48,574 nt of DNA from a plasmid (NZ_CP120968.1); one strand, 5' to 3'. Shown: positions 46,756-48,574, counted from the first letter of the stretch. The notes: a model not told the origin generated them from the sequence alone. A program made the numbers and translations.

Positions 46756-46764
46756 GGTATAATA
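46756..46764 (+). promoter_or_regulatory. extended -10 (TGGTATAAT) for the MFS-HD-SAHH-like operon
   Basis: Sequence match 40 nt upstream of the MFS start. Confidence 0.4.
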
Positions 46765-46804
46765 TGTAATAAAAACTATATGTAGTGTTTGGAAGGTGCA
46801 ATTC

Positions 46805-48196
46805 TTGGTTCAAGAGAAACACAACAAACTATTGAGCGCAATAATTTCGATTGGTCTTTTAAGCTTTTTAGGAATAGTGGTTGAAACAGCGTTAAACATA
46901 ACCTTCCCACAATTAACAACGTATTTTTCTATACCTATCAGTCAAGTTCAATGGTTGACTACTGGATATATGCTAGTCTCAACTAGTTTGATTCCATTGG
47001 GTTCATTCTTTTTAAGACGGTTTCGTGTGGTAACTTTATTTAGAGTTTCGTGCTTAAGCTTTTTAGTCGGTACGTTGGTTGCAAGCTTTTCCAACAGCTT
47101 TAATTTAGTTTTGCTAGGCCGCTTATGTCAAGGCATTGCTGATGGAATCGCGTTACCGTTGATGTTTGCTGTCATACTAGATCAAGTGCCAAAGAAAAAA
47201 GTTGGCACTTTTATGGGGCTAGGTAGCTTAGTTATTGCCTTTGCACCAGCAGTGGGTCCCATATATGGTGGCATAATTCAGGACACATTCAATTGGCATT
47301 TTCTATTTATAATTTTAATACCAATTATTATGGTTACCTGGCTGCTTGGTGAGCTTAGCATTGAACAAAGTTCACCGGTTCATTACGTTCCCTTTGATGT
47401 CCGTGGGGGCATTTTCTTGGCCATTTTTTTGACAACGACGTTGATGTTTATTGTTAACTTGACTGCTAACAGTAGCTCTTTTAAATTGTATTTATTTTTA
47501 CTAGGAACAGCTTTTTTTAGTGGCTTACTTTTCCTTCTTAATGAGAAGCATAAGAGCCATAAATTGTTGGAATTAAGTCTCTTTAAAAACAAACGCTTTT
47601 TGCAGTTGTTAAGTGCTTTTTTTCTATTGCAATTCAGTTCTTTGAGTATGTCATACTTAATCCCTAATGTGCTACAAATACTTTTTGCCCAGTCACCTGG
47701 TTTGGTAGGTTTTCTAATTGCTCCTGCCGCTGTGATTGATGCAGTGCTATCGGTGGTTGCTGGTATTATTTACGATAAAACTGCACCCCGCTTACCCATT
47801 ATAAGTGGCTGTATAATCATTGGACTGACCTTTTTGGGCGCCAACCTATTTACACCAAGTATTGGCGGGCTGGTTTTAATATATATGCTTTTTATGGTGG
47901 GATTGAGCTTTAGCTACAGTAACATCATGACCTATAGTTTGTCTCAATTACCTGCTGGGTTAGTAAATGATGGTAATTCGATTTATATGACGGTTCAAGC
48001 TTATTCAGGAGCAGTTGGAATTGCAATATCGTCCTCTATTGTTTCTTTATTGCAGAAACAACAAGGGAGTGTAATTTCAGGGACAAAATGGGGGTTAGCA
48101 ATCAATTTCTTGATTTTGTTTTTTGTTGCCGTATTCACAATTTCTCTATGCTTGATAGCTTTACGAAATAAAGTAATTAAAGGAGATAAAGAGTAA
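46805..48196 (+). CDS. MFS transporter, DHA2-like (14-TM drug:H+ antiporter family)
   Basis: Start set at the TTG 8 nt after GGAAGG (the track uses the GTG at 46796 adjoining the RBS); MFS motif GRLCQGIADGIALP; stop overlaps the HD gene start (TAATG). Confidence 0.8.
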   Translation: MVQEKHNKLLSAIISIGLLSFLGIVVETALNITFPQLTTYFSIPISQVQWLTTGYMLVSTSLIPLGSFFLRRFRVVTLFRVSCLSFLVGTLVASFSNSFNLVLLGRLCQGIADGIALPLMFAVILDQVPKKKVGTFMGLGSLVIAFAPAVGPIYGGIIQDTFNWHFLFIILIPIIMVTWLLGELSIEQSSPVHYVPFDVRGGIFLAIFLTTTLMFIVNLTANSSSFKLYLFLLGTAFFSGLLFLLNEKHKSHKLLELSLFKNKRFLQLLSAFFLLQFSSLSMSYLIPNVLQILFAQSPGLVGFLIAPAAVIDAVLSVVAGIIYDKTAPRLPIISGCIIIGLTFLGANLFTPSIGGLVLIYMLFMVGLSFSYSNIMTYSLSQLPAGLVNDGNSIYMTVQAYSGAVGIAISSSIVSLLQKQQGSVISGTKWGLAINFLILFFVAVFTISLCLIALRNKVIKGDKE

Positions 48197-48574
48197 TGAG
48201 TTTAGATGATATAAAATCATTTTCTAAAGAAAATATGGCCTTTGATCCAACTGGGCATGATTTTCTTCATGCCCAAAGAGTGGCTAAGTTAGCTCAAAAA
48301 ATATATACAGAAGATTTTAAAAAAGATGAAACTGATATTGGTCTGTATGTTGTGAAAGCAGCTAGCTATTTGCATGACACCATAGACGAAAAAGTCACTG
48401 CAGATAAAAAGAATAGACTGAGAGAAGTACGAATTATACTTAGCCATGAGAATATTGCAACTCCGGCTAGAGAAGACATTTTAGATATTATCCAACATAT
48501 GTCATATTCTGACAACATTGAACACCATTACCAGCTTTCTAACGAAGGTAAATGTGTTCAGGACGCTGATAGAC
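48196..48574 (+). CDS. HD-domain metal-dependent phosphohydrolase, N-terminal 126 codons (continues at position 1)
   Basis: HDFLHAQRVAKLA ... YLHDTID HD motifs; the ORF is open to the last base of the window. Confidence 0.8.
   Translation, partial: MSLDDIKSFSKENMAFDPTGHDFLHAQRVAKLAQKIYTEDFKKDETDIGLYVVKAASYLHDTIDEKVTADKKNRLREVRIILSHENIATPAREDILDIIQHMSYSDNIEHHYQLSNEGKCVQDADR

Follow-up and report, generated by a model that had tools for sequence, protein, structure and literature searches.

Both the folds and the general logic of employing an enzyme of the S-adenosylhomocysteine hydrolase (SAHH) superfamily in nucleoside tailoring are already known. The described system that appears, by analogy, closest to the locus considered here is the part of the Streptomyces antibioticus NRRL 3238 pen cluster devoted to vidarabine (Ara-A), penD-penG, in which PenD and PenG are annotated as SAH hydrolases and PenE is a major facilitator superfamily (MFS) protein (PMC11592144, PMC12648386). 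PenE is taken as the nucleoside exporter (PMC12648386), and PenF is a YpgQ/YedJ-type HD 5′-nucleotidase that prefers Ara-AMP (PMC11592144). In this work, we analyse NZ_CP120968.1, a circular plasmid of Lactiplantibacillus plantarum type (48,574 nucleotides, taken at full length and called the window below), and focus on a three-gene cassette encoding an MFS transporter, an HD-domain phosphohydrolase (HD) and a 384-aa SAHH-like protein, whose family, sister to SAHH, is here named SAHL. This operon is apparently functional and is spreading horizontally. Tentatively, and with somewhat less than an even chance of being right, we propose that SAHL would modify a common nucleotide at its sugar by way of a transient 3′-keto intermediate, that HD would strip the phosphate, and that the MFS protein would export the product.

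In content and order, penE-penF-penG matches the succession of MFS transporter, YpgQ-type HD protein and SAHH-annotated protein in the window. The window HD shares with PenF the metal ligands (H25, H60, D61 and D128) and counterparts of the substrate residues (R137, Y141, H175 and K179), both of which have been proven important in PenF by mutagenesis (PMC11592144). Peptide fragments of PenF rebuilt from published primers are ~50% identical to the window HD, and a comparison of two such peptides, derived from the primers in PMC11592144, with a set of 5.8 billion proteins yielded no PenF candidate. The two systems differ in that the pen cluster also carries the pentostatin genes, another SAHH-like gene and three genes resembling phytoene dehydrogenase, all of which are missing from the window cassette. 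Its Streptomyces host, moreover, is unrelated to lactobacilli, and no nucleoside product is known from cassette-bearing lactobacilli.

Two further systems offer partial likenesses. AgmF, from angustmycin biosynthesis, is an SAHH-homologous, NAD-self-sufficient nucleoside-sugar dehydratase that does not act on SAH and for which His56, Asp129, Lys184, Asp188 and His299 are essential (PMC8599513). Judged by these published residues, SAHL has equivalents of the His, the Lys and Asp188, whereas Asp129 (131 in SAHH) and His299 (301) are replaced. The AgmF cluster likewise contains a phosphatase, a phosphoribosyltransferase-type enzyme and transporters (PMC8599513), but AgmF is a close relative of SAHH, whereas SAHL forms a separate family. 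In the cordycepin module of Cordyceps, the HD phosphohydrolase Cns2 works obligatorily with the oxidoreductase Cns1, and a transporter gene adjoins them (PMC8869658). Here, too, an HD enzyme acts with an oxidoreductase of the NAD(P) type on the sugar of an adenosine nucleotide, beside a transporter. The module differs in being fungal, in using 3′-AMP as substrate and in having a transporter of the ABC type, and it was compared with SAHL by description only.

The initial annotation of the window had supposed that the cassette was undescribed, and a literature search indeed found no paper on the SAHL family, its protein accessions or the cassette; within the literature searched, the SAHL family, its partnership with hydrolases, its STAND fusions and the plasmid cassette all appear to be undescribed. 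The family is large and routinely mis-annotated as 'adenosylhomocysteinase', and its strict active site, near-obligatory pairing with phosphohydrolases, Nudix fusions and recruitment into STAND proteins point to an undiscovered nucleotide reaction. Its elucidation might open another way of making sugar-modified nucleosides, the class of drugs to which vidarabine and cordycepin belong, supply the enzyme logic that is missing for Ara-A-type pathways, define a novel kind of immune effector, and explain why a mobile cassette spreads among lactobacilli and pediococci of fermented foods, silage and beer.

A coupled operon and its spread among plasmids

The linear ends of the window lie inside the HD gene. 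The replicon is circular and was cut within this gene, because joining positions 48196-48574 to 1-284 restores an unbroken HD open reading frame (ORF) of 220 codons, and because this DNA runs without a break in other plasmids, such as NZ_CP151095.1, where PGAP consecutively annotates an MFS transporter, an HD domain-containing protein and an S-adenosyl-L-homocysteine hydrolase. Around this junction, the three genes are coupled by overlapping stops and starts, just as initially annotated (coordinates of all features are collected in Table 1). Shine-Dalgarno-like sequences precede both downstream starts, namely AAGGAG within the MFS gene, 10 nt upstream of the HD ATG, and AGGTG within the HD gene, 6 nt upstream of the SAHL ATG. 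The overlaps are not a matter of chance, since stops and starts likewise overlap or abut in homologous operons of Staphylococcus, of Firmicutes contigs and of the archaeon Ca. Methanovirga.

The 5′ boundary needs some adjustment. The operon had been placed from position 46756 onward; a candidate extended -10 element does stand there, but the MFS gene itself starts farther downstream, at the TTG chosen by PGAP, or at an alternative GTG at 46796 (466 aa) according to the ORF lister. The candidate element is absent from the listing of a promoter consensus scan, has no good -35 box, and stands after a type I toxin-antitoxin locus that carries RatA and rli28 Rfam matches. A riboswitch or leader RNA upstream of the operon was considered and rejected, as an Rfam scan at gathering thresholds matched only the RatA and rli28 elements of that neighbouring locus and the distance from the candidate promoter to the start is ~40 nt. 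A terminator scan found no intrinsic terminator 3′ of the SAHL gene.

The first protein, initially annotated as a DHA2-type pump, is DHA2-like by its profile matches. It clearly matches Pfam MFS_1 (8.6e-38), and its best NCBIfam model is TIGR00711 efflux_EmrB of the DHA2 group (7.7e-63, aligned over 2-413 of 485 positions), although its score of 212.9 bits falls just below the cutoff of 230.2. A crude hydropathy scan gives 14-16 peaks, DHA2 drug:H+ antiporters having 14 transmembrane segments. The identification of the second protein as a YedJ/YpgQ-type HD enzyme is borne out by its matches to solved structures in a phmmer search of the PDB, including lp_2664 of L. plantarum (2PJQ, 1.9e-49), YpgQ of Bacillus subtilis (5DQV, 2.1e-25) and YedJ of Escherichia coli (3GW7, 1.9e-21), by a match to PF01966 (4.7e-6), and by the H...HD...D metal ligands, which make it a clear family-level member. 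It differs from YpgQ and YedJ in scoring below the cutoff of the equivalog model NF007515 (1.5e-27, 96.5 bits against 286), and it represents a plasmid paralogue of the chromosomal lp_2664 that is specifically coupled to SAHL.

The cassette recurs on many plasmids. The segment with the 3′ end of HD and SAHL (window positions 1-1500) is complete and at least 99% identical in 28 plasmid records, whose hosts are Lactiplantibacillus, Pediococcus, Lentilactobacillus and Levilactobacillus, and the segment with MFS and the 5′ end of HD is complete in 42 records, including one plasmid of Loigolactobacillus. A diverged SAHL allele with 73% amino-acid identity and an adjacent phosphohydrolase gene occurs on the L. 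plantarum plasmid NZ_CP017376.1, from raw sausage; L. plantarum therefore harbours two or more cassette lineages. In Lactobacillus iners DSM 13335 (locus L019), a 96% identical cassette reads HD-SAHL and then MFS-HD again, an arrangement that is either tandem and permuted or due to a plasmid circle assembled into a 179-kb scaffold.

Fold and active site of the SAHL family

The third protein was first described as having an SAHH fold, and this is upheld by both structure and profile comparisons. Its AlphaFold (AF2) model is confident (pLDDT 93.3), and in a Foldseek search of the PDB the best 50 matches listed are all SAHH or AHCYL (E ~1e-16, TM ~0.76, TMq at most 0.77, ~18% identity). A profile built from 63 SAHL members matches SAHH of the PDB at ~1e-29 across both domains (positions 15-374), whereas KARI reaches only 3e-7 over ~65 residues. 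KARI, 2-hydroxyacid dehydrogenase, DpaA and TrkA were accordingly rejected as relatives, their matches being limited to ~50-70 residues around the GxGxxG motif. With SAHH and AHCYL, the SAHL family shares the two-domain fold and the Rossmann NAD motif with its acidic ribose ligand.

Residues were mapped by hmmalign to human AHCY, whose numbering agrees with the PDB alignments; the N-terminal part of the map comes from an alignment with archaeal SAHH. In SAHH, Lys186, Asp190 and Glu156 serve the oxidation of the 3′-OH, and Asp131, His301 and His55 the chemistry at C4′/C5′ and the addition of water. SAHL conserves His55 (H35), Lys186 (K162), Asp190 (D166), Asn346 (N324), the NAD-binding motif (G197xG199xxG202) and the acidic character of Glu243 (D220), and Glu156 is conservatively changed to D132. 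Asp131 (I107), Asp134 (Y110), Asn80 (K58, which is invariant in SAHL), His301 (S280) and Asn191 (Phe) are replaced, and neither Thr57 nor Glu59, which bind adenine in SAHH, is conserved. The alignment stops before the GHP motif; the absence of its histidine (His353), already pointed out in the initial annotation, holds and extends to the His301 equivalent; the protein ends at residue 384, without the C-terminal tail carrying Lys426 and Tyr430. Across the 63 diverse bacterial and archaeal members aligned, ~29 columns are invariant; the residues kept from SAHH are constant or nearly so, and ~20 further positions do not vary either.

Read together, these residues suggest that the SAHL family keeps NAD-dependent 3′-oxidation and that its 5′ pocket has been remodelled into a less acidic one that would suit phosphate, K58, Y110 and S280 being predicted to line it. 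An anionic (phosphate) 5′ group would fit such a pocket because SAHL has given up two acidic residues and acquired a lysine.

The initial annotation had called the protein non-catalytic, and this label does not survive the comparison. A decoy or regulator resembling AHCYL/IRBIT, merely binding an adenosine-like ligand, would account for a protein that lacks the equivalents of Asp131, His301 and His353 as well as the SAHH C-terminal tail, and that scores far below the SAHH family cutoffs. The NAD motif and the equivalents of Lys186, Asp190, Glu156 (as Asp) and His55 are nevertheless invariant in the 63 diverse members, and SAHL is fused or coupled to hydrolases, as is usual for sequential enzymes, so a decoy appears very improbable. 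Since these positions are invariant in bacteria and archaea alike, SAHL is predicted to be active, and on sequence grounds it is apparently a catalytically competent enzyme with altered 5′-side chemistry.

That this chemistry is simply that of an ordinary SAHH, giving the plasmid host an alternative route through the methyl cycle, is hardly credible. PGAP does name the product 'S-adenosyl-L-homocysteine hydrolase' or 'adenosylhomocysteinase', and the best Pfam (PF00670, AdoHcyase_NAD), NCBIfam and PDB matches are all SAHH. The scores, however, lie far below the family cutoffs (TIGR00936, 44.3 bits against 497.6; NF004005, 52.1 against 275), the Pfam search gave no match to PF05221 (AdoHcyase), identity to solved SAHH (EC 3.13.2.1) is only ~18%, and Asp131, His301, the His353 gate, Thr57 and Glu59 are not conserved. 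The genomic partners also differ from those of SAHH, the neighbours being nucleotide hydrolases rather than methionine-cycle genes.

Hydrolase partners, STAND fusions and candidate chemistry

Relatives of SAHL numbered 718 in a word-indexed search, and an exhaustive profile search (E at most 1e-30) gave 837 cluster representatives at 50% identity; canonical SAHH scores only ~105 bits against the same profile. Among 185,579 species genomes (one per species), 548 relatives were found, and the best 80 of these loci were surveyed for their neighbours, a Nudix gene being counted when it lay within 150 bp on the same strand. A Nudix gene adjoins SAHL in 61 of the 80 loci, an HD gene in six and both in four (all in Burkholderiales), so that 71 have a Nudix gene, an HD gene or both; two of the nine loci with neither end at contig borders. 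The adjacent Nudix genes mostly overlap SAHL by 4 bp, and Nudix-SAHL fusions occur in many proteins, with Nudix at either end. In another of the nine, from a Nanoarchaeia metagenome-assembled genome (L022), a CYTH/triphosphate-tunnel enzyme resembling NeuTTM (1e-7 to PDB 3TYP and 2FBL) overlaps the start of SAHL in place of HD or Nudix. The rule is thus SAHL together with a nucleotide (poly)phosphate hydrolase, a position filled by three unrelated folds, which suggests that either the substrate or the product is a phosphorylated nucleotide. The Nudix partners matched no specific NCBIfam family and consequently give no clue to the substrate.

The HD-SAHL pair, whose occurrence elsewhere the initial annotation had named as a check on its reading, is strongly co-conserved in other genomes. 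HD-SAHL-MFS closes a longer operon on Staphylococcus epidermidis plasmids, HD-SAHL-MFS or MFS-HD-SAHL occurs on three chromosome-like Firmicutes contigs (L011, L014 and L015), and Ca. Methanovirga has HD-SAHL without MFS. The HD proteins are 44-62% identical to that of the window in the Firmicutes trios and 43% in Ca. Methanovirga, and the linked MFS proteins of other Firmicutes are 35-54% identical to the window transporter. Transporters recur in other layouts, with SAHL-Nudix-MFS-HAD phosphatase in a Streptomyces (L010) and, in Burkholderiales, the addition of a 296-aa hydrophobic protein for which no Pfam match was found.

The nine-gene S. epidermidis operon includes genes for an HpaB-like oxygenase, a Nudix protein, an M24/creatinase-like protein, a pyridoxal phosphate-dependent enzyme, a PyrE-like phosphoribosyltransferase, HD, SAHL and MFS. 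It looks like a nucleoside-analogue biosynthetic cluster of a skin commensal, arranged as one would expect of a pathway that makes a base analogue, joins it to ribose phosphate, tailors and dephosphorylates the product, and exports it. It is also apparently undescribed, as a literature search found no paper on such a cluster. A link of this operon to 6-N-hydroxyaminopurine (6-HAP) or 6-thioguanine was considered and dropped, a literature search yielding no supporting paper.

A second context is provided by STAND NTPases. In four proteins (P0213, P0236, P0247 and P0252), SAHL forms the N-terminal domain of an NB-ARC STAND NTPase with TPR or DUF7779 repeats and retains the full invariant signature. 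One such gene adjoins AbiEii, and no hydrolase or pump lies beside SAHL-STAND genes in the neighbourhoods examined. The N-terminal domain of Avs/NLR-like STAND proteins is normally the effector, and this position would imply that the substrate of SAHL is a ubiquitous metabolite and that its reaction is harmful when the product is neither processed nor exported. By the same analogy, the SAHL-STAND proteins may represent a novel class of effector in NLR-like immunity; two large surveys of STAND and NTP-dependent conflict systems are silent on any effector resembling SAHH. Identification of the cassette as a defence system already catalogued, or as phage-derived, was rejected: in PADLOC-DB v2, no significant match was found for MFS, HD or SAHL, the last reaching only Rossmann-level E1-E2 models at ~1e-4, and SAHL relatives occur at only three loci among 2.9 million viral contigs.

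In the proposed pathway, SAHL with tightly bound NAD+ would transiently oxidise the 3′-OH of a common nucleotide (a nucleoside mono- or triphosphate), alter the sugar, and then re-reduce the 3′ position. Candidate alterations are 2′-epimerisation to an arabino-nucleotide and elimination at C4′/C5′ with loss of the 5′-phosphate. HD would remove the phosphate or phosphates, shielding the producer from the analogue nucleotide and yielding a nucleoside, which the MFS pump would export. The STAND fusions and the Staphylococcus operon lean toward SAHL making a harmful or bioactive nucleotide product. A bolder version of this idea, which we consider unlikely, is that SAHL acts on a universal nucleotide such as ATP or AMP, either as a 2′-epimerase that forms arabino-nucleotides via a 3′-keto intermediate or as a 5′-(poly)phosphate lyase giving a 4′,5′-didehydronucleoside, and that the product is a polymerase or metabolic poison. 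SAHL would then serve both as the effector of death or dormancy in NB-ARC/TPR STAND immune proteins and, in operons with a pump and a Nudix, HD or CYTH hydrolase, as a self-protected factory for a secreted antimetabolite. Were this true, food-grade lactobacilli carrying the cassette would secrete a vidarabine-like nucleoside, and if food strains do secrete or resist nucleoside antimetabolites, the ecology and safety assessment of starter cultures would be affected.

Several points weigh against the sugar-editing proposal. The analysis shows how the operon is built, the folds, the conserved residues, the linkage and fusion of genes and the spread on plasmids, whereas substrate class, chemistry, step order and transport direction are those that we infer; K58, Y110 and S280 were placed at the 5′ pocket by alignment with SAHH rather than by distances; the likeness of SAHL to PenG and PenD was drawn from published annotation; and the effector role in STAND proteins follows from an analogy of position only. 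Export is not universal, as most Streptomyces loci consist of SAHL and Nudix alone. SAHL is truncated in several plasmids in which MFS and HD are intact, one record having an IS30 transposase annotated under a split SAHL match, and many other plasmids of lactobacilli retain only a decayed HD fragment and the first ~27 SAHL codons; the enzyme may be costly, or it may simply be dispensable. Finally, DHA2-like pumps typically act in resistance as well, and the trio fits detoxification equally well.

Under such a detoxifying role, a toxic nucleoside analogue made by competitors, once taken up and phosphorylated in the cell, would be returned by HD to the nucleoside, converted or inactivated by SAHL through 3′-oxidation chemistry, and exported by the MFS protein. 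The gene content is as compatible with this scheme as with sugar editing: the models nearest to the pump are those of drug efflux, among them EmrB and LmrB, the cassette is at least 99% identical on mobilizable plasmids across genera, as a resistance gene would be, and house-cleaning of analogue nucleoside triphosphates is known for Nudix and YpgQ-type enzymes (for YpgQ, cited in PMC11592144). A purely detoxifying activity is, however, hard to square with a conserved SAHL in the effector position of STAND/NLR-like proteins, the Staphylococcus SAHL stands in a biosynthesis-like operon with a phosphoribosyltransferase, and the extreme conservation of the active site between archaea and actinobacteria would favour as substrate a universal metabolite rather than a particular antibiotic. 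We regard detoxification as less likely than sugar editing but still a serious rival, with defence against carbocyclic analogues that target SAHH, the example offered in the initial annotation, as a possible special case.

A third role, pool sanitation, repair or salvage, in which HD, Nudix or CYTH enzymes would hydrolyse a damaged or unusual nucleotide, SAHL would repair or recycle its sugar and the MFS protein would import or export the nucleoside, draws on the wide distribution of SAHL relatives and on the many Streptomyces loci where SAHL and Nudix form a bare pair that keeps its synteny with an XRE-type regulator and has no transporter. The three Firmicutes contigs also fit, as they carry the trio among chromosomal-type genes, for example pheST, yidC and a mannose-type phosphotransferase system. 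The family is nevertheless patchy rather than core, it is plasmid-borne in lactobacilli and staphylococci and disrupted or truncated in some of these plasmids, and neither the STAND fusions nor the biosynthetic-type Staphylococcus operon would be expected; we regard sanitation as quite unlikely. On balance, sugar editing of a common nucleotide followed by dephosphorylation and export is the reading that we tentatively prefer.

Decayed copy and surroundings of the cassette

A decayed second copy of HD (from codon 5) and of the first 82 nt of the SAHL gene lies elsewhere in the window, much as initially noted, and both frames end prematurely, that of HD in a TAA at codon 65 and that of SAHL in a stop at codon 23. 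Class Ib ribonucleotide reductase genes directly abut this fragment, and an NrdI is annotated in the related plasmid NZ_CP151095.1. Immediately upstream of the cassette, on the opposite strand, a 368-aa ORF matches the PADLOC candidate family PDC-S15 (2e-71); it is probably unrelated, because it does not stand beside the cassette in NZ_CP151095.1.

Table 1. Features of the window and of the related loci discussed in the text
Feature	Location	Strand	Remarks
MFS gene, DHA2-like, 463 aa from TTG	46805-48196	+	PGAP start taken from NZ_CP151095.1
HD gene, 5′ part (codons 1-126 and one base)	48196-48574	+	Runs on at position 1
HD gene, 3′ part (whole protein 220 aa, YpgQ/YedJ/PenF-type)	1-284	+	Joined ORF intact
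SAHL gene, SAHH-like NAD-binding enzyme, 384 aa	274-1428	+	AF2 model, Foldseek, family profile
MFS/HD stop-start overlap, TAATG	48194-48198	+	MFS stop TAA 48194-48196; HD ATG 48196-48198
HD/SAHL overlap, 11 nt, ATGAGACATAA	274-284	+	SAHL ATG 274-276; HD stop TAA 282-284
Candidate extended -10 element, TGGTATAAT	46755-46763	+	~40 nt upstream of MFS start; inferred from reading the sequence
Decayed second copy, HD and SAHL 5′ end	37391-38111	-	97.2% identity over 721 bp
Class Ib ribonucleotide reductase genes	33035-36680	-	Abut the decayed copy
NrdE-like ORF, 722 aa	34068-36236	-	
145-aa ORF in nrdI position	36243-36680	-	
Probable nrdF	33035-33961	-	
368-aa ORF, PDC-S15 candidate	45055-46161	-	Upstream of cassette
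RatA-type antitoxin RNA matches (Rfam RF01776)	46294-46640; 3515-3605; 24147-24235		First location includes the rli28 match
IS110-family transposase, 408 aa, two copies	1809-3035; 22441-23667	-	
183-bp repeat beside the IS110 copies	1619-1800; 22250-22432		93% identity
IS256-family transposase	43444-44619		
Contiguous junction DNA, NZ_CP151095.1	23758-27332		MFS, HD, SAHL consecutive
Diverged SAHL allele, NZ_CP017376.1	10832-11971		L. plantarum plasmid
CYTH enzyme, Nanoarchaeia (L022)	4457-4984		Overlaps SAHL start
Nine-gene Staphylococcus operon	L002 661-8500; L099 1439-8568		e.g. NZ_CP121491.1
SAHL-STAND fusions, 1150-1220 aa	L100 5001-8495; L101 1381-4827; L102 1652-5311		Low-GC contigs, 32-41%

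The cassette stands between mobile elements, including an IS256-family transposase and two copies of an IS110-family transposase, each of the latter accompanied by one copy of a 183-bp repeat. RatA-type antitoxin RNA matches mark type I toxin-antitoxin loci at three places in the window, one match being accompanied by an rli28-like RNA and by a small Fst-type ORF ('holin-like toxin'), and two of these loci flank the cassette, one on either side.

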